Below, one piece after another: positions 51,893 to 60,059 of a stretch of 64,000 nucleotides of DNA; the stretch's first letter is position 1; each line of letters starts with the position of its first letter. Where the stretch lies: contig PLYC01000021.1 in NCBI GenBank assembly GCA_003151625.1, forward strand, positions 16,235-80,234, written 5' to 3'. The translations under genes were made by a program, and so were the position numbers. Origin of the DNA: Candidatus Doudnabacteria bacterium (GTDB taxonomy: Bacteria > Patescibacteriota > Doudnabacteria > UBA920). A model generated the notes under the pieces. The model was not told the origin of the DNA and did no database searches. It saw nothing but the letters and a program-made list of their open reading frames with translations.

Positions 51893-52816
51893 ATGCAGCC
51901 GTTTGCTCTAATTTTATCTTCCATCTTTTTATACTGCTATATTATTCTTTCGTCTATAGAATTCGGGGCGTCAGTTTTTAATATTTACCCCGAACTGCTC
52001 GGCGACCACTCTAAGTTAAATGAGTATCTAAGTCCGGTCTGGGAAACCACCAATGTTTTTTTGGTATTTTTTATAGTTGGAATTTTTACTTTTTTCCCCG
52101 GCTCTGTAATTTACTACGGCACCAATTTAATGCCGCTGCTGTTTACCGCGCTGGTTTTTGCCGTACTTCGCGTTGTTTGTATGCTGCTAGTTTTTTACGG
52201 CGAAATCCAGAACCAATACATTAATCTGCTTTTTGTTATTTCCCGCTTTTTCTTTCCTTTAATCCTTTGCGGTTTTTACTTTTATTGTCTAACGGGACAG
52301 CTTGCTATAATCCCGGAAAGTTTTTTGGGCTTGGCTTTATGGTTGTTTGCCATAGCCGTAATTTTGCTTATTTCCGCGACATTTTTTCAATATTATTCTG
52401 GCGTCAATCTAAAAAAATATATTGAAAAACTGGCCATTTTATTTACTTTGGCGCTGGCTGTTTTAATTACCGCCTTAGCCAACAGCGCACCTTACTTGTT
52501 TGCCAATGGCTACCAAAATTTATTAGCAGGATTAGTCTTACTAATAAGCGCGGCGGGGTTTATTTGGATTTTTTACAAACAAAAATTTCTACATTTATTT
52601 TTGTCCGTTTGCAGTATTATTGGGACAATCTTTTTTAGCTTAATTAGCCTCCATTTGCCTTACTTAATCTATCCAAATGTAACGGTTTACAGCGCTTTCA
52701 CCGATCCGGCCGTTTTTAAAATTATGATGTGGTGCCTGCCGTTCGGGTTAATTGTTGTTGCCCCGGCATTATTTTTGCTGTATTCCCTGTTTGGTTCTAA
52801 ACAATCCCATAACTGA
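51893..52816 (+). CDS. cydB: Cytochrome bd oxidase subunit II
   Basis: IEFGA, PVWETTNVFLV, FFP; follows cydA. Confidence 0.88.
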   Translation: MQPFALILSSIFLYCYIILSSIEFGASVFNIYPELLGDHSKLNEYLSPVWETTNVFLVFFIVGIFTFFPGSVIYYGTNLMPLLFTALVFAVLRVVCMLLVFYGEIQNQYINLLFVISRFFFPLILCGFYFYCLTGQLAIIPESFLGLALWLFAIAVILLISATFFQYYSGVNLKKYIEKLAILFTLALAVLITALANSAPYLFANGYQNLLAGLVLLISAAGFIWIFYKQKFLHLFLSVCSIIGTIFFSLISLHLPYLIYPNVTVYSAFTDPAVFKIMMWCLPFGLIVVAPALFLLYSLFGSKQSHN

Positions 52817-52827
52817 TTTTAAAAAAA

Positions 52828-54000
52828 ATGACAAAAAAAATTTTAGCCATAGAAACCAGTTGTGACGAAACAGCGGCGGCAGTTTTGGAATTGCGCGATA
52901 GCAAAACTTGGCCGAAAATAGCTTCGCTTTCTTCCGTGGTCAAATCCCAAATTTCCCTCCATAAATCTTTTGGCGGGGTGGTGCCGGAAGTTGCGGCGCG
53001 GGCGCACGTAAAAAATATTTTACCGGTCGTAAAAAAAGTCCTGTCAGACAGCAATTTAACAAAGACAAGTGAAATTCACGGCCGTGAATTTCACTTGTCT
53101 TTGCAAAAAATAGATTATATTGCGGTAACCGTAGGACCTGGTTTAATTCCCTCACTAATTGTGGGCGTGGAATTTGCCAAAGCGCTTTCACTGGCAACCG
53201 GCAAACCGATTATCCCTGTCAACCATATGTTGGGACACCTGTACTCGCCATTCGGAAAATTGGAAAATGAGGAAATTGAAAAATTATTTCCAATGATTTC
53301 ACTAATAGTTTCGGGTGGTCACACAATAATTGTGCTTATAAAAAATATTAAAGAATACAAAGTCCTGGGACAAACCGTGGACGATGCCGCGGGAGAAGCT
53401 TTTGATAAAGTCGCAAAACTCCTTGGCCTCCCCTATCCCGGAGGCCCCGAGGTCAGTAGGCTGGCCAAACTGTCTAAATCTTCCGCGATTGTGTTTCCGC
53501 GGCCAATGATAAACAGTAAAAATTATGATTTTTCTTTTTCCGGCCTAAAAACCGCGGTACTATATTATTTGCGCGACAACCCAAACGCGAAAAAAGAAGA
53601 CGTCTGTAAAGCTTTCCAGGAAGCCGCCGTAGACGTCCTGGCTACCAAAACCATGCGCGCCGCAAAAGAATATGGGGCAAAGTCAGTCAGCCTGTCCGGA
53701 GGCGTAGCCGCTAACGAACCCTTACGGAGCGCCTTAAATCTTTCCGCCAGAGGCGGATCCGCCTCCCTTCGAGGGTCTGAGGACCCCTCAGGGTCTCGAA
53801 CGACCGGCGGAAAATCTAAAATCTTAAACCCGTCTCGTTCGACGCGAGCCGAGGCGGATCTGAATTTTTTTGTTCCCCAAAAAAATTTATGCACTGACAA
53901 CGCCGAAATGATAGGCGTGGCCGCCTGCTTTATGCTGCACAACGGGTTTAAGCCAAAAAACTACAAGCAAATTAAGGCCGACCCGAACCTTGAACTTTAA
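52828..54000 (+). CDS. tsaD: tRNA N6-adenosine threonylcarbamoyltransferase (with three palindromic insertions)
   Basis: AIETSCDET, GGVVPEVAARAH, NHMLGH, SGGHT, DDAAGEAFDK, SFSGLK, TDNA. Confidence 0.97.
   Translation: MTKKILAIETSCDETAAAVLELRDSKTWPKIASLSSVVKSQISLHKSFGGVVPEVAARAHVKNILPVVKKVLSDSNLTKTSEIHGREFHLSLQKIDYIAVTVGPGLIPSLIVGVEFAKALSLATGKPIIPVNHMLGHLYSPFGKLENEEIEKLFPMISLIVSGGHTIIVLIKNIKEYKVLGQTVDDAAGEAFDKVAKLLGLPYPGGPEVSRLAKLSKSSAIVFPRPMINSKNYDFSFSGLKTAVLYYLRDNPNAKKEDVCKAFQEAAVDVLATKTMRAAKEYGAKSVSLSGGVAANEPLRSALNLSARGGSASLRGSEDPSGSRTTGGKSKILNPSRSTRAEADLNFFVPQKNLCTDNAEMIGVAACFMLHNGFKPKNYKQIKADPNLEL
53060..53103. repeat. Perfect 44-bp palindrome inside tsaD
   Basis: CAAAGACAAGTGAAATTCACGG|CCGTGAATTTCACTTGTCTTTG. 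Confidence 0.95.
53741..53814 (+). repeat. 74-bp nested palindromic element in tsaD
   Basis: Near-identical to the nusA copy, same reading frame. Confidence 0.92.
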
Positions 54001-54018
54001 AGCCCGATGGATTATAAT
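53990..54018 (+). promoter_or_regulatory. Sigma70 promoter of the NUDIX-valS leader
   Basis: TTGAAC-N17-TATAAT. Confidence 0.75.
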
Positions 54019-54031
54019 AAAGTCAAGCTTA

Positions 54032-54206
54032 TGTTCCGGCTGTCACCGGAACAGCGCGGGAAGAAATCGATGCTTGTAGTCTGCCGATTTATCGGCCATC
54101 AAAAGTAGAGCCCGCCGGGATTGCCCGTTATAGCGATCAAATTAAGTTAAATTCACGATGGTACCGCCCGCGAGGGCTTGTGAACACCACTTTTGTGGTG
54201 TTTTTA
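54032..54206 (+). ncRNA. T-box riboswitch (Val), ultrashort Stem I, with terminator
   Basis: TTCACGA-TGGTACC-GCCC-GCGA-GGGC-TTGTGAA antiterminator; AGTA and CCGTTA boxes; GTC in the Stem I loop; upstream of valS. Confidence 0.85.
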
Positions 54207-54221
54207 TTTAACAACAAACTT

Positions 54222-54647
54222 ATGGAAACCTATCAAACTCCAATATCTGTCAAAGCAATAATTTTCGAAGGCTCCAAGGTATGGTTAAGAAAAAACGAAA
54301 GAAACGAATGGGAACTGCCGGGAGGAAAACTGGAAAAACAAGAACAGCCGGAACAGACAGTTACCCGGGAAATTAAAGAGGAGCTAGATTCAGATATTGA
54401 AATAATTGAGATTATACAAGCCTATGTTTACCAAATAACAAAATCGGCAGATGAGCAATACGGAGTAATGGTTATAACATATCTGTGCAAATTATTATCT
54501 TTGGGCAAAAACTTTGAAACCCAAGGCGAAGCAGGAACTGCAGAATTCAAAAAAATTTCTATCAAAGATATTCCGGCTCTAAAGATGCCTTCGTTTTACA
54601 AAGATTCTATACAAAAAGCTTGGAACAAATTAAACAAAACATTATGA
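54222..54647 (+). CDS. NUDIX hydrolase
   Basis: WELPGGKLE..E.....VTREIKEE box. Confidence 0.92.
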   Translation: METYQTPISVKAIIFEGSKVWLRKNERNEWELPGGKLEKQEQPEQTVTREIKEELDSDIEIIEIIQAYVYQITKSADEQYGVMVITYLCKLLSLGKNFETQGEAGTAEFKKISIKDIPALKMPSFYKDSIQKAWNKLNKTL

Positions 54648-56833
54648 TCGAACTTGATAAAGCCTACGACCATTCCACGGTCGAAGAAAAAATTTATAAG
54701 ATGTGGGAGACTTCGGGATATTTTAATCCGGACAAGCTTCCGGGCGACCGTAAACAACCCTATACCATAATTATGCCCCCGCCGAATGCCAACGCTCCAA
54801 TGCATTTGGGGCACGCTTTGTTTGTGACCATAGAAGACATCCTAATAAGGTATAAAAGGATGCAAGGATACAAGACGCTATGGCAGCCGGGCACCGACCA
54901 CGCGGGTTTTGAAACCCAGGTGGTTTTTGAAAAAAAACTGGAAAAGGAAGGCCGGTCGCGTTTTAAAATGCAACGGGAAGAATTTTACAAGGAAATTTGG
55001 GAGTTTGTCCAAAGCAACAAGCATATAACAGAAAACGGACTGCGCCGTCTCGGAGCATCCTGCGATTGGGACAGGAACATTTTTACCCTGGACCCGGAAA
55101 TCGTAAGAATAGTCTACGCGACTTTTAAAAAAATGCACGAAGACGGGCTAATGTACCGCGGCGACCGCATTGGCAACTGGTGTTTTAAGCACCAAACCGC
55201 TTTGTCTGACTTGGAAACCAAATACGAAGAACGCGTTGAGCCATTTTATTATTTTAAATATGGCCCGTTTACCATAGGCACCAGCCGCCCGGAAACCAAG
55301 TTTGGTGACAAATACGTGGTTATGCATCCGAACGATAAACGTTACGCCCAATATAAAAACGGCGATACTTTTGAAGCGGAATGGATTAACGGGTCAATAA
55401 AGGCAACCATTATTAAAGACGAAGCCGTGGATATGGAATTCGGTAGTGGGGTTATGACTATTACGCCGTGGCATGATCCCGTGGACTTTGATTTGGCGCA
55501 AAAGCACAAGCTGGACAAAGAACAAATAATCGACAAATTTGGGAAGCTTTTGCCGATTGCCGGTGAGTTCGCGGGAATGAAAAACGCGATTGCCCGCCCT
55601 CTAATTGTGGAAAAATTAAAAAACAAAACCCTCCTGGTAAAAGTTGATGAGAATTACAAGCACAATGTAAATGTTTGCTATAAATGCGGCGCCATAATAG
55701 AGCCGCAAATAATCCCCCAGTGGTTCGTGGCTATGGCCAAACCGCTCCCCGATGGTCGGCCAAGCCTCCGCGATATGGCCATTAACGCCATAAAAAATAA
55801 GGAAGTAGAGATTGTCACGGAAAAATTCGAAAAAATTTTTATGCACTGGATGGAGAACCTCCGCGACTGGCCGGTAAGCAGGCAAATTTGGTGGGGAATC
55901 CCGATTCCGGTAAAATATTGTGTCGATTGCAAAGAGGTTATTGTAGACACGGACGATTCCATAAAAGTATGTCCAAAATGCCAATCACCCAAACTCGAAA
56001 AGGATCAGGATACTTTTGACACCTGGTTTTCCAGCGGTCAGTGGCCATATGCGACTTTAATGGCGAACGATGTTAAAAGAGGCACTAAGGACTTTGAAAA
56101 TTATTTTCCAACGCAAGTCATGGAAACCGGTTGGGATATTTTATTTTTCTGGGTGGCCAGAATGGTAATGATGTCGTATTACCGCACCGGAAAACAACCT
56201 TTTGAAAAAGTTTATTTGCATGGTTTGGTGCGAGACAAAGACCGGCAAAAAATGAGCAAAAGCAAAGGTAATGTTATTGACCCGCTTGGTGTTATTGATA
56301 CCTATGGCTGTGACGCTTTGCGCTTTGCGCTCATATTTTCCACCTCGGCCGGCAACGACATTCCCCTGGCTGAAGACAAAATTAAAGGCATGAAACATTT
56401 TGCCAACAAGCTTTGGAATATTGCGAGATACATTTTGGCAAATGTAAGTGTCCCCATTCCCCCCCTTGCAGAGGGGGGGCTAGGGGGGGTTACCGATGCA
56501 GACAAAGAGATTTTAACCAAACTCAATCAAACAATTAAAAATACCACGGTCCACCTGGATAATTTTCGCCTGCACGAAGCCGCCCAGGAAATTTACCAGT
56601 TTACCTGGCACGAGCTGGCGGATATTTACGTGGAAGCGTCCAAAAAACAGCTGGCTGATGAAACCTTAAAAGAAAATACCCAAAAATTGCTGCTGCATAA
56701 TTTAATTAACATCATAAAATTACTCCATCCGTTTATGCCATTCATTACCGAGGAACTTTGGGGAATACTGGGACAAGCCGATTTATTGGGTCGTCATGAC
56801 TTGCTAATAATTGAAAAATGGCCTATAGTATAA
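54644..56833 (+). CDS. valS: Valine--tRNA ligase (compact, no C-terminal coiled coil)
   Basis: PPPN...HLGH, GTDHAG, SRQIWWG, KMSKS. Confidence 0.97.
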   Translation: MIELDKAYDHSTVEEKIYKMWETSGYFNPDKLPGDRKQPYTIIMPPPNANAPMHLGHALFVTIEDILIRYKRMQGYKTLWQPGTDHAGFETQVVFEKKLEKEGRSRFKMQREEFYKEIWEFVQSNKHITENGLRRLGASCDWDRNIFTLDPEIVRIVYATFKKMHEDGLMYRGDRIGNWCFKHQTALSDLETKYEERVEPFYYFKYGPFTIGTSRPETKFGDKYVVMHPNDKRYAQYKNGDTFEAEWINGSIKATIIKDEAVDMEFGSGVMTITPWHDPVDFDLAQKHKLDKEQIIDKFGKLLPIAGEFAGMKNAIARPLIVEKLKNKTLLVKVDENYKHNVNVCYKCGAIIEPQIIPQWFVAMAKPLPDGRPSLRDMAINAIKNKEVEIVTEKFEKIFMHWMENLRDWPVSRQIWWGIPIPVKYCVDCKEVIVDTDDSIKVCPKCQSPKLEKDQDTFDTWFSSGQWPYATLMANDVKRGTKDFENYFPTQVMETGWDILFFWVARMVMMSYYRTGKQPFEKVYLHGLVRDKDRQKMSKSKGNVIDPLGVIDTYGCDALRFALIFSTSAGNDIPLAEDKIKGMKHFANKLWNIARYILANVSVPIPPLAEGGLGGVTDADKEILTKLNQTIKNTTVHLDNFRLHEAAQEIYQFTWHELADIYVEASKKQLADETLKENTQKLLLHNLINIIKLLHPFMPFITEELWGILGQADLLGRHDLLIIEKWPIV

Positions 56834-56841
56834 TTAATTAC

Positions 56842-57054
56842 ATGGTTGATTCAAAATACTTAACAGAATATCGCTGTCCGGGATGTCGCAAGCTTCTTTG
56901 TAAAGGTCTTTTAACAGACCAAAGCAATGTTTTGGAAGTAAAATGCCGCGGGTGTGGACAAATTTGCCAGTTTGCCGGTGAAGATGCCCACATTATCAGC
57001 GAACGCTCCGTGTTAATTAGGCAACGCCTTATACCGGATACCGACACCACCTAG
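56842..57054 (+). CDS. Com-like zinc-ribbon protein
   Basis: EYRCPGCRKLL...EVKCRGC. Confidence 0.75.
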   Translation: MVDSKYLTEYRCPGCRKLLCKGLLTDQSNVLEVKCRGCGQICQFAGEDAHIISERSVLIRQRLIPDTDTT

Positions 57055-57065
57055 TATAAAATTTA

Positions 57066-57098
57066 AAACAGCGGACGCCATAGCGTCCGCTGTTTTTT
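57066..57098. terminator. Bidirectional intrinsic terminator
   Basis: aaaacagcggacgc-cata-gcgtccgctgtttt. Confidence 0.85.
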
Positions 57099-57108
57099 TA
57101 TCTCTATA

Positions 57109-58308
57109 TTATTTAGCCAGGTATGCCTTTAAGCCTTCGCGCAAAATTTCCATGGCTTCTTTTAAGATCTTGCTGTCCAAAACATATGCCACGCGAATTT
57201 CGCTGTGGCCGCGGCCGGGCGTAATGTAAAAATCCTGCATCGGGGTAACCATTACGGTTTTACCTTTATAGCTAAATTCGCTAATCATAAACTTTACAAA
57301 ATCTTCGGACTCTTTTACCGGTATTTGTAAAGATTGATAAATCGCGCCCTGTGCCGGCTTAAACACCACGCCTGGAATTTTGGCCAAGCCTTCGGCTATA
57401 ACGTCGCGGCGCTTATGATATTCCTTAACCAGCTTTGTTACATAAGGTTTGCTGTTGTTTAAAACCGGGATTAAACCCAGCTGTTCCAGCGTCGGAGTGG
57501 ACAGCCTGGCCTGGGCAAACTTTAAAATGGTATGCATTACATCGGTGTTAAAACTTGCCACAACGCCTGTGCGCGCGCCCGGCATGGTAAAGCGCTTGCT
57601 GGCGCTGTCGCAGACTATTACGTACTCTCGGGCGGCTTTGTTGGCCAAAAGAGAAGTGGGTTTTTTGCCGTCAAAACGGATTTCACGGTAAGTCTCATCG
57701 GAAATTATAAATAGGTTGTGTTTTTTCGCAATGGCGACTACGGTATTCAGCTCTTTTTCCGTCCAGAGTTTTCCGGTCGGGTTGTCCGGATTAATTACCA
57801 CCACCGCTTTGGTTTTTTTGGTAATCTTTTTTTCTATTTCCGCGGCTGTGGGCAACGCGAAATTTTTTTCAAAAGGCAGCAGTACCGGCACCAGCTTAAT
57901 TCCGGTCATTACGGCAAAAGATTTATAGCTGGCATATAGCGGCTCAAAAACCAACAGCTCTTCGCCGGGGTCGCAAACCGCCTGCATGGCCAAAAGTATG
58001 GCCTCGGCACAGCCCACGGCAGGGATAATCCCGGACATCGGCAAATCTACGCCAAACTGCTTAAAATATGTTTGCCAGGCGGCCGTGTGCGCGGGAATTC
58101 CAGGGGACGGCGTATAAGGCAAAGTCTTTCCGGCATAAGCCCGAATAACTTTAAAAAAATCCTGCGGCGGCACCAAATCGGGATCACCAACATTAATTTT
58201 AATTACCTTTATCCCCTTTTTCTCCGTGGCCTGCACATAAGGCAAAAACTTGCGTATTGGCGAAGCAATAACATCTCTGCCCCTTTTTGAAACCTGCAAT
58301 TTAGACAT
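57109..58308 (-). CDS. PLP-dependent aminotransferase class I/II
   Basis: INPDNPTG, SDETY, SASK....PGAR.G. Confidence 0.93.
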   Translation of the reverse strand: MSKLQVSKRGRDVIASPIRKFLPYVQATEKKGIKVIKINVGDPDLVPPQDFFKVIRAYAGKTLPYTPSPGIPAHTAAWQTYFKQFGVDLPMSGIIPAVGCAEAILLAMQAVCDPGEELLVFEPLYASYKSFAVMTGIKLVPVLLPFEKNFALPTAAEIEKKITKKTKAVVVINPDNPTGKLWTEKELNTVVAIAKKHNLFIISDETYREIRFDGKKPTSLLANKAAREYVIVCDSASKRFTMPGARTGVVASFNTDVMHTILKFAQARLSTPTLEQLGLIPVLNNSKPYVTKLVKEYHKRRDVIAEGLAKIPGVVFKPAQGAIYQSLQIPVKESEDFVKFMISEFSYKGKTVMVTPMQDFYITPGRGHSEIRVAYVLDSKILKEAMEILREGLKAYLAK

Positions 58309-58463: not shown

Positions 58464-59090
58464 CTAAATAGAAGTTTCAAATATTTTCTTTACTAAACTT
58501 GTTCTTGCGTAAAAAGCACGGCTTATCGATCCATGACCCGCCCCTTTTGTTCGTGCTTGTATCCACTTCCCATCTGAGCCTGTAAGACTGGCAAAACCTT
58601 TTTTTATTAGCTTATTTCTTATAAGATCGTAATCAGCCTTTATCTCTTTAATCAGCTCGTCTGTTTCGGCAAAATCCAGACTAGTTACTTTTATCAATTC
58701 TGCTTTTTCTGCATTTTTTCCATACCACATTACCGCACAAAAAATTATGGATTTTAGTTTAGACCAGCAATGACTTTTATAGAACTCATTGTCTTTAAGC
58801 TCTTGCGGATTAATCATTGTTATTGCCATGGTCTCTTTTGGCACGAGCAGGTTTTTTACATTGTGAAAACTTACGGACTTTAATTCCCAAGAAAGTCCAT
58901 TTGGAGCTTTGGACACATTATTTTCCAAACCGGCTAGCCTTTCTAAAATTAAACCTTTCCAACCTTTGTTTTGTTTTCCCGTCTCATATGTTGTAATTTT
59001 AAAATTCTTAGCAAGTTTTCTCAAATCCTTGCCTATATATTTATTTAAGTTCTTTATTGCAACTGCTCTAGTAATAATTTTCTTAGGCAT
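58464..59090 (-). CDS. MutH/Sau3AI-family endonuclease
   Basis: NKGWKG..LE, ELKS, PKETMAIT, IQARTKG, RAFY. Confidence 0.85.
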   Translation of the reverse strand: MPKKIITRAVAIKNLNKYIGKDLRKLAKNFKITTYETGKQNKGWKGLILERLAGLENNVSKAPNGLSWELKSVSFHNVKNLLVPKETMAITMINPQELKDNEFYKSHCWSKLKSIIFCAVMWYGKNAEKAELIKVTSLDFAETDELIKEIKADYDLIRNKLIKKGFASLTGSDGKWIQARTKGAGHGSISRAFYARTSLVKKIFETSI

Positions 59091-59093
59091 AAA

Positions 59094-60059
59094 TTACTTA
59101 AATAATTCTTCCTGCTTCATTGAAAGTCTATTTGCCATAATTTCTACTTGTTTTTTACTAGGAGCTTTATTATAAACCTGATTTAGCTCTTTAATTAGAC
59201 TTTCCAATTCGGCGTGCCTCTTAATAGACAGATCCAAATATTTCTTCTCCATATCTATACCAATAAACTTACGTTTAAAAGCGCTGGCCGCTATGCCGGT
59301 GGTGGAACTTCCGGTAAAAGGATCTAAGACTACGTCCCCTTCTTTGGTGCTGGCCAACACAATGCGTTTAAGCAAATCTATTGGTTTTTGTGTTGGATGT
59401 TTGCCAAAGTGTTTTTCAGCCTTTCTTGGAGTAAGAATTGACCAAACGGAGCGCATTTGCAAACCCTCTTTTTTTAAAAAGTCTTCAGGCCACTGGCCAT
59501 TCTTCATCAAATCATAGTTAAAAGTATGTTTGGCCTTTTTGTCTTTGCGTGCCCATATAATTGTTTCGTGGCTGGCGGTAAAAAACCGGCAGCTTAAATT
59601 TGGCGAGGCGTTTGGTTTAAACCAGGAAATGTCGTTTAAAATATGGTAACCCAAAGACTGAAGGGCGTGGCCGCACTGGTAAATAGAGTGATAAGTTCCG
59701 CTAACCCAAAGGCTACCTTCCGGTTTTAAGACCCTTTTACAGGCTTCCATCCATTTGTAGTGAAAATCGTAATCATCTTGAAAACCTCTGCTTTTGTCCC
59801 AGTCCCCTTTATTCACGCTAACCATTCTTCCTGCGTGCACGGAAAAGCCTCCGTTAGAAAGGTTGTACGGAGGGTCAGCAAAAATCATATCTACGCTATT
59901 TTCCGGAAGCTGGCTTAAAACATCCAAGCAGTTTGAGTGGTACAAAACAAAATTATCCTTCGTGAAATAAGGCTTTTGGGCGACATTTGATAGGATTTTC
60001 GCTCCGGTTTCCATTTTTTTTCTTTTGTTGATTTTTCGTCTTTTTTTCATAGTATACAA
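59094..60059 (-). CDS. Beta-class N6A/N4C DNA methyltransferase (DpnA-like)
   Basis: IFADPPY...HPTQKP...LDPFTGS. Confidence 0.93.
   Translation of the reverse strand: MYTMKKRRKINKRKKMETGAKILSNVAQKPYFTKDNFVLYHSNCLDVLSQLPENSVDMIFADPPYNLSNGGFSVHAGRMVSVNKGDWDKSRGFQDDYDFHYKWMEACKRVLKPEGSLWVSGTYHSIYQCGHALQSLGYHILNDISWFKPNASPNLSCRFFTASHETIIWARKDKKAKHTFNYDLMKNGQWPEDFLKKEGLQMRSVWSILTPRKAEKHFGKHPTQKPIDLLKRIVLASTKEGDVVLDPFTGSSTTGIAASAFKRKFIGIDMEKKYLDLSIKRHAELESLIKELNQVYNKAPSKKQVEIMANRLSMKQEELFK

Follow-up and report, generated by a model that had tools for sequence, protein, structure and literature searches.

In the textbook transcriptional T-box the terminator and the antiterminator overlap extensively. 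The T-boxes of the Bacillota (Bacillus subtilis tyrS and glyQS; Rfam RF00230) combine a long Stem I, which carries an AG bulge and a double T-loop, with a Stem III, a specifier that obeys the C-rule and an antiterminator (helix A1, bulge, helix A2) that is followed by the terminator and placed before a synthetase gene. According to the accessible text of PMC7583486, a long Stem I is as a rule required for transcriptional control, and tRNA binding by the antiterminator is poor when Stem III is missing; a paper of 2024 places Stem III in all identified T-boxes.

T-boxes with a short Stem I have been described from the ileS genes of actinobacteria (Nocardia farcinica, Mycobacterium tuberculosis) under the names 'Class III' (PMC10482949), 'ultrashort' (PMC7583486) and 'class II' (TBDB; PMC7778990), and the accessible parts of the first two sources agree with the preliminary description of the present locus that ultrashort Stem I is known mainly from translational ileS leaders. 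The TBDB short-stem model was, in the portion of PMC7778990 available, applied to Actinobacteria genomes and to class I matches with a truncated Stem I; entries of the kind reported here, from Patescibacteria, may exist in that database. A literature search, which subscription papers mostly lay outside, found no relevant report of T-boxes in CPR/Patescibacteria.

A third group for comparison is formed by the tug-of-war riboswitches, synthetic as well as natural, of a preprint of 2026 (10.64898/2026.06.17.733018). Its accessible text reports that ligand-stabilized structures 0–4 nt upstream of a terminator suppress termination, probably by competition for the exit channel of the polymerase, and that natural ZTP switches are built in this way; most natural tug-of-war terminators lie below −15 kcal/mol, and in E. 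coli terminators that were weak and followed a short spacer proved 'always ON'. The term 'T-box' was not found in the preprint by word search.

The leader described here precedes valS in the window, by which the whole stretch of 64 000 nucleotides that was analysed is meant. The host had been taken for a probable CPR bacterium, and this was borne out by the nearest valS records (92% identity), which are from Candidatus Doudnabacteria, and by a genome of 1.5 Mb (34 contigs). Like the actinobacterial ileS T-boxes, the leader has a short Stem I that lacks the elbow-binding double T-loop, a specifier ending in C and followed by a purine in a 6-nt apical loop, the five-purine string of the S-turn, a IIA/B pseudoknot and a 7-nt T-box bulge. 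It differs from them in specifying Val instead of Ile, in its occurrence in Patescibacteria, in ending with a terminator and U-tract instead of a ribosome-site sequestrator, in the absence of Stem III, in the loss of the tandem G–A pairs of the K-turn and in a G–C pair at the base of A2. With the Bacillota T-boxes it shares the order A1, bulge, A2 and terminator before a synthetase gene and a C-rule specifier, but it has no long Stem I, AG bulge, double T-loop or Stem III, and its terminator overlaps A1 by 1–3 nt. The likeness to tug-of-war riboswitches, as far as the accessible preprint text describes them, would consist of a ligand-stabilized structure just upstream of a terminator, a spacer of <5 nt and a sensor that stays folded; the ligand, in contrast, would be tRNA, there are 1–3 weak shared pairs and the terminators are at about −7 to −13 kcal/mol.

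Table 1. Features of the valS leader and its flanks, in window coordinates.
Feature	Position	Strand	Details
σ70-like promoter, TTGAAC, 17 nt, TATAAT	53990–54018	+	Overlaps the end of tsaD; predicted start near 54025
T-box leader of valS	54025–54209	+	
Stem I	54025–54055	+	Basal pairs 54027–54028/54054–54055; 3-nt bulge; 8-bp helix 54032–54039/54046–54053
Specifier GUC (Val) and 3' purine	54042–54045	+	GUC 54042–54044, A54045, in the 6-nt apical loop
Stem II with S-turn	54056–54115	+	Lower helix 54056–54060/54111–54115; GAA 54063–54065; GUAGA 54105–54109
GTAG-type REP-like hairpin in the Stem II loop	54076–54096	+	Incidental
Stem IIA/B pseudoknot	54116–54138	+	54116–54118/54125–54127; 54119–54124/54133–54138; F-box CCGUUA 54125–54130
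Purine string, without Stem III	54144–54151	+	AAG, two bases, then AAA
Antiterminator	54152–54184	+	A1 54152–54158/54178–54184; bulge UGGUACC 54159–54165; A2 54166–54169/54174–54177
Intrinsic terminator	54182–54209	+	Core 54185–54190/54195–54200 (6 bp) abuts A1; U-tract 54201–54209
NUDIX-family gene	54222–54647	+	PF00293, E 4.5e-12; overlaps the valS start codon
valS, valine–tRNA ligase, 729 aa	54644–56833	+	NF004349 and TIGR00422 above cut-off

The coordinates are collected in Table 1. The parts listed in the preliminary description (Stem I, specifier, Stem II, pseudoknot, bulge, and hairpin with U-tract) are all present between 54032 and 54209, including the GTC codon followed by A in the apical loop, the GAA/AGTA strands of the S-turn and both helices of the IIA/B pseudoknot around CCGTTA. 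Its start at 54032 holds for the 8-bp helix, and the element itself probably begins 7 nt earlier, at 54025. The promoter-like site ends 7 nt ahead of the conserved 5' end of the leaders; with 10 of 12 matches it had the top score of a 4.7-kb region (52500–57200), in which such sites were no commoner than in shuffles (11 versus 8.7 ± 3.1). A −10-like hexamer stood at most 16 nt upstream in 36 of the 43 leaders tallied.

That the valS leader is a real T-box can be taken as practically certain. The general features of the family are there: GUC before valS, and A1 and A2 separated by a 7-nt UGGNACC bulge whose N matches the discriminator base. The genome encodes a tRNA-Val(GAC) with the 3' end A73-CCA, an exact partner for the GUC specifier and the UGGU of the bulge, which is complementary to the ACCA end; the fit to an A73 discriminator that had been proposed from the bulge is thus confirmed. 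In folding, the leader had a z score of −2.76 and none of 200 shuffles was equally stable. RF00230 gave 11.1 bits (E 7.6) on the leader against a Rfam gathering cut-off of 93, so that no T-box was called, and it reached its cut-off nowhere in the genome. A second T-box was not found in the genome by a motif scan, by two covariance models of our own (150 of 460 and 150 of 424 candidates scored) or by RF00230; the second genomic match of the R1 model (G000:C13, E 2.7e-4) proved to be the terminator with which an ORF closes.

When 61 genomes were searched at the DNA level, the leader was seen adjoining valS in many relatives. A covariance model built for the leader matched 49 of the 61 genomes from the order, that of the window included, at E ≤ 0.05, and 33 of the 36 other members of the family; in a set of 80 valS loci it was found on all seven from Ca. 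Doudnabacteria, with 16 of the 80 giving strong matches. Leader loci were assembled to a total of 54, of which 51 could be parsed (all except L047, L192 and L201), and valS lies downstream in 51 of 51. L189–L191, weak R1 matches in relatives, have no T-box bulge and were dropped. In an unfitted MAFFT alignment of 14 leaders, picked for compactness from about 30, 92.2% of the cells pair, and changes on both sides were seen in 24 of 34 pairs, a value reached by none of 500 shuffles, the leaders being kin and not independent. Such changes were found in six of the seven pairs counted in Stem I and, as compensatory changes, in 5/5 pairs of Stem II and 6/6 of IIB, which is 69% paired; IIA is 95% paired and nearly invariant. 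A54064, A54065, U54106, A54107, G54108 and A54109 were invariant in 14 of 14 leaders, and the S-turn matches the five-purine string of the Nocardia ileS T-box (PMC7583486, accessible text).

Stem I, with its 8-bp stem and 6-nt apical loop, corresponds to the short Stem I of Class III as defined in the accessible part of PMC10482949. GUC is invariant among the leaders and the two loop bases before it vary; it was read in every parsed leader with an intact Stem I (L068 ends at a contig end, and L195 was read by eye). The other frames of the loop, CUG, UGU and UCA, were ruled out as their flanking bases vary. Because the leaders are kin and were picked by a model trained on Val leaders, the constancy of GUC shows conservation only.

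The relation between codon and gene was taken from a wider set. A broader covariance model matched 52 of 151 sampled Patescibacteria genomes (18 candidates scored per genome), showing a regulatory RNA that is widespread in the phylum and escapes Rfam; Val and Ile leaders served as training set for the models, which favours the finding of such leaders. All 62 previously unseen matches in the phylum were examined; gene names were assigned from representatives of BLAST groups, and codons were collected by a gene-blind rule (the 3'-terminal triplets of hairpin loops lying close to the 5' end, several per leader). By this rule GUC was found in 14 of 14 valS leaders, AUC in 23 of 29 ileS leaders, GAC or AAC in seven of eight aspS leaders, UCC in 3/3 for serS and ACC in 1/2 for thrS. 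AUC occurred in no valS leader and GUC in no ileS leader, any wrong triplet was limited to at most 5 of 29 leaders, and six of the 62 matches precede other or unknown genes. Within the order, reading by eye gave AUC loops at nine ileS loci and, ahead of thrS, an ACC loop accompanied by a UGGA bulge. The preliminary description had named as refuting evidence a loop codon that does not track the downstream synthetase; in the relatives it does track it, across the 62 matches.

Several elements of the described T-boxes are missing or altered. Stem III is absent from the leader of the window, where AAG and AA are kept and the helix and the G of the fifth position are missing. Its slot is at most 8 nt long in 26 of the 43 leaders parsed there, holds a hairpin in 15 and is long and unstructured in two; the eight of the 51 that did not parse at this slot mostly show a hairpin by eye. 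Stem III is accordingly missing in about half of the homologues, and it has been lost inside the family, since homologues with the helix do have the feature. At the K-turn site the 3-nt bulge is kept in the window and the tandem G–A pairs are absent; tandem GA/GA was found at this bulge in only one of 50 leaders, so that the K-turn of Class III is not represented, and many homologues carry an inserted hairpin there. The T-box bulge is UGGUACC in 41, UGGUAAC in seven and UGGCACC in three of the 51 leaders. A2 is closed in the window by a G–C pair and capped by GCGA; the accessible text of PMC11404447 accepts G–C as a substitute for G–U at the base of A2, and the steric-filter feature of the A2 base is present here in this form. 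Over the 51 leaders the basal pair of A2 is G–C in 26, U–A in 16, G–U in five, C–G in three and U–G in one; no description of U–A at this position was found in the T-box literature.

The copy of a GTAG REP element noted earlier in the loop of Stem II was recovered, and the motif occurs at nine places in the genome (ten matches, one locus matching on both strands). Relatives contain many copies, of which the pattern used placed one inside four of the 51 leaders. As a functional part of the switch the copy was rejected on account of these nine loci and of its presence in only 4/51 leaders.

The hairpin and U-tract that had been seen after the antiterminator form a terminator which in the window shares only three weak outer pairs with A1, and the arrangement is therefore not the textbook either/or switch. 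The minimum-energy fold contains both the antiterminator and the terminator core; a fold that keeps the whole antiterminator together with the 6-bp core has −21.5 kcal/mol, against −21.8 kcal/mol for the best alternative. Among the 51 leaders the core begins 0 nt (22) or 1 nt (25) past A1 in 47 and 2 nt past it in two, and it is absent in two; the resulting gap of 0–2 nt in 49 of 51 lies inside the <5 nt spacer of tug-of-war riboswitches. In all 49 leaders with the hairpin 1–3 nt are shared with A1, as A–U or G–U pairs reaching into the U-tract. The core itself does not overlap A1 but the 1–3 outer pairs can, where the tug-of-war design has no overlap between sensor and terminator. The spacing of 0–1 nt is fixed while the Stem III slot ranges over 4–93 nt and A2 over 12–94 nt, and the junction between A1 and terminator thus appears to be held short, with insertions going elsewhere. 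At least seven U within 9 nt follow the hairpin in 45 of the 49 leaders scored.

Steric blocking of this abutting terminator by a tRNA-locked A1 is, by analogy with the tug-of-war riboswitches, regarded as the likelier main route of control. Uncharged tRNA-Val(GAC) is predicted to bind the minimal leader through GUC and UGGU, and would lock A1 and hold the three shared bases. Kept out of the RNA exit channel, the tRNA-locked helix would prevent the last terminator pairs from closing, and RNA polymerase would read through the incomplete terminator to valS. With charged tRNA, the weak and bulged A1 would fray, the hairpin would be completed and transcription would stop near 54208. The exit-channel step is inferred from the accessible text of the preprint (10.64898/2026.06.17.733018). 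Against the steric route stands the strength of the terminators, which at medians of −7.0 kcal/mol beside an intact A1 and −9.7 kcal/mol with A1 released are weaker than most of those in the preprint (below −15 kcal/mol). The 'always ON' behaviour of weak terminators there speaks in the same direction, and the review statements on long Stem I and on Stem III given above also count against the reading.

A serious rival, though rather unlikely as the main route, is that the tRNA acts by base-pair competition over the 1–3 shared bases, holding the bottom of A1 and so shortening a marginal terminator below working strength. Such an overlap exists in 49 of 49 leaders, release of A1 strengthens the hairpin by a median of 2.6 kcal/mol, and the pair directly below the core covaries (32 A–U, 10 G–C, 7 G–U, 0 A–C). 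As this pair belongs to A1 in the 22 zero-gap leaders, base-pair competition may contribute. However, the shared pairs are A–U or G–U pairs into the U-tract, the core of 4–7 bp forms regardless of A1 (pair probabilities 1.0) with a full U-tract behind it, and 27 of the 49 leaders have one or two free bases between A1 and the core.

The accessible texts of PMC7583486 and PMC11404447 describe Stem III, the G–A pairs of the K-turn and the A2 wobble as important, and REP and other hairpins have been freely inserted into the leaders; a degenerate T-box, which folds but without Stem III and K-turn senses no charging and serves as a fixed leaky attenuator, would show the same. This reading is nevertheless improbable, as six families, with compensatory changes, all retain the specifier, the purines of the S-turn, the pseudoknot and the bulge, the insertions spare the A1–terminator junction and the specifier switches with the gene. 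Hardly probable either is a T-box that binds tRNA and acts on RNA processing or stability, or in which a host protein replaces Stem III: RNase cleavage of the met T-box leader of S. aureus is known (PMC7913692, accessible text) and a protein might supply contacts that are lacking in the minimal fold, but the leader alignments show no extra conserved motif and a hairpin with a U-tract has the anatomy of a terminator. Least probable is a translational T-box of the actinobacterial ileS kind, in which the 3' hairpin would hide the ribosome entry site, for although the short-Stem-I T-boxes of the sources cited above are all described as mostly translational and in 25 of 51 leaders valS begins no more than 170 nt after A1 (often 30–60 nt), the hairpin of the window contains neither a purine-rich ribosome-binding sequence nor a start codon (the ATG follows 22 nt after it), the U-tract has been conserved, and the first gene lies at a widely varying distance and is often a passenger. 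The 3' end of 16S rRNA was not found in the assembly.

Control by the leader is very probably transcriptional. This fits better than translational control in view of the conserved U-tract and of the passengers that often separate valS from the leader: in 26 of 51 leaders it is 185–1491 nt away, and unrelated ORFs intervene in 21 of these 26 (20 of 25 relatives). Acting on translation, the switch would govern a passenger that differs between genomes, whereas a terminator controls valS whatever lies between. In place of the translational output of Class III, the sequences thus have a hairpin with a U-tract before a variable first gene, and the minimal transcriptional variant that had been proposed is supported by the comparative evidence of U-tract (45/49), variable first gene and short Stem I. 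The genome contains nusG; rho was not found over cut-off in this one assembly. In three RNA runs the organism was not seen by long pieces. A 151-nt contig in X3 matches 54160–54210 with four differences and has some relative as its source.

The NUDIX gene that had been placed between leader and valS was verified by its PF00293 match. No match to it was found at E 1e-5 in the 50 other leader loci, and other passengers take its place in relatives; it was rejected as a functional part and, judged from this distribution, is a lineage-specific passenger outside the mechanism. The ten passengers scanned included a four-helix-bundle protein, an NAD(P)HX dehydratase, an AAA-type kinase, a PaaX-like protein and other NUDIX-like proteins. 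The gap between leader and valS (54210–54643 in the window) resembles an insertion hot spot under T-box control, being so occupied in 26 of 51 genomes. The valS product is short, about 700 of 860 model positions being matched.

In comparative terms, the valS leader is placed as a descendant of the T-box family that would work like one, yet it lacks Stem III, the K-turn and the translational output. The wiring of terminators was classified in 74 other short-stem matches, with 26 overlapping A1/A2, 17 enclosing, none abutting and 31 unparsed or other; the classifier is noisy, L233 being abutting by eye and 36 of the 51 valS leaders being called abutting versus 49 by direct count. As 26 of the 74 have an ordinary overlapping terminator, the combination of short Stem I and terminator recurs, and on these sequence counts the abutting layout is concentrated in the valS leaders of the order. 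In L175–L183, L192, L202, L221, L222, L226, L236, L237 and L254 the 5' arm of the terminator lies upstream and the terminator encloses the antiterminator. The CACC/GGUG pair of these enclosing terminators is the abutting hairpin of the window, and this common pair suggests that enclosing and abutting layouts may interconvert. It is tentatively proposed that valS leaders of the Doudnabacteria type represent a natural tug-of-war design among T-boxes and have the smallest tRNA sensor so far, with a short Stem I and without Stem III or K-turn G–A pairs, in which the terminator would be silenced by the bulk of the tRNA in the exit channel, and that they represent one of three interchangeable wirings (overlapping, enclosing and abutting) on a short-stem chassis that would regulate at least five synthetase genes in Patescibacteria.

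Three published generalizations (the need of transcriptional T-boxes for a long Stem I in fast tRNA capture, the universality of Stem III and switching by mutually exclusive folds) become testable on an RNA of 165–190 nt. As ilvD was not found in the genome (one assembly), the leader would report on externally obtained valine. With its swappable codon and modular terminator, a T-box of this small size would be useful as an amino-acid sensor, and is also a candidate for native control of expression in a phylum described in the accessible text of PMC11665869 as being without inducible expression tools.

Some leaders of the wider set stand before other targets. At four loci (L185–L188/L211–L214; G014:C15, G013:C53, G016:C2 and G019:C1) a short-stem T-box with CGC (Arg) and an overlapping terminator lies upstream of an ORF of 105–120 aa (one was scanned and had no Pfam match) and a dinB-like polymerase; argS was not among the ORFs in 9–11 kb around three of them, and by their gene context these are putative T-boxes on a non-synthetase target. 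The aspS leaders carry either AAC (Asn; L247, L256, L257 and L276) or GAC (Asp; L235, L239, L255 and L264), those of L276 and L264 having been read by eye, and the use of AAC and GAC in both types of aspS would fit non-discriminating enzymes. T-box-like leaders L275, L234 and L283 precede lysine/glutamate 2,3-aminomutase-like, Ham1-family and histidine phosphatase genes, respectively; synthetases may lie further downstream.

Further observations concern the genome and the remainder of the window. ARAGORN reported a tRNA-Ile with anticodon UAU at G000:C5:166392–166468, and the assembly has a single CAU tRNA. Both tsaD (53740–53870) and valS (about 56480–56530) contain in-frame hairpin-rich insertions that look repeat-derived. 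Between 50070 and 52816 queF was found above cut-off, followed by two membrane proteins which, by eye, we take to be cytochrome bd oxidase subunit-like; cytochrome bd oxidase subunits are unusual in a CPR genome. At 58464–60059 putative DNA methyltransferase and restriction endonuclease genes, judged by eye, are neighbours.
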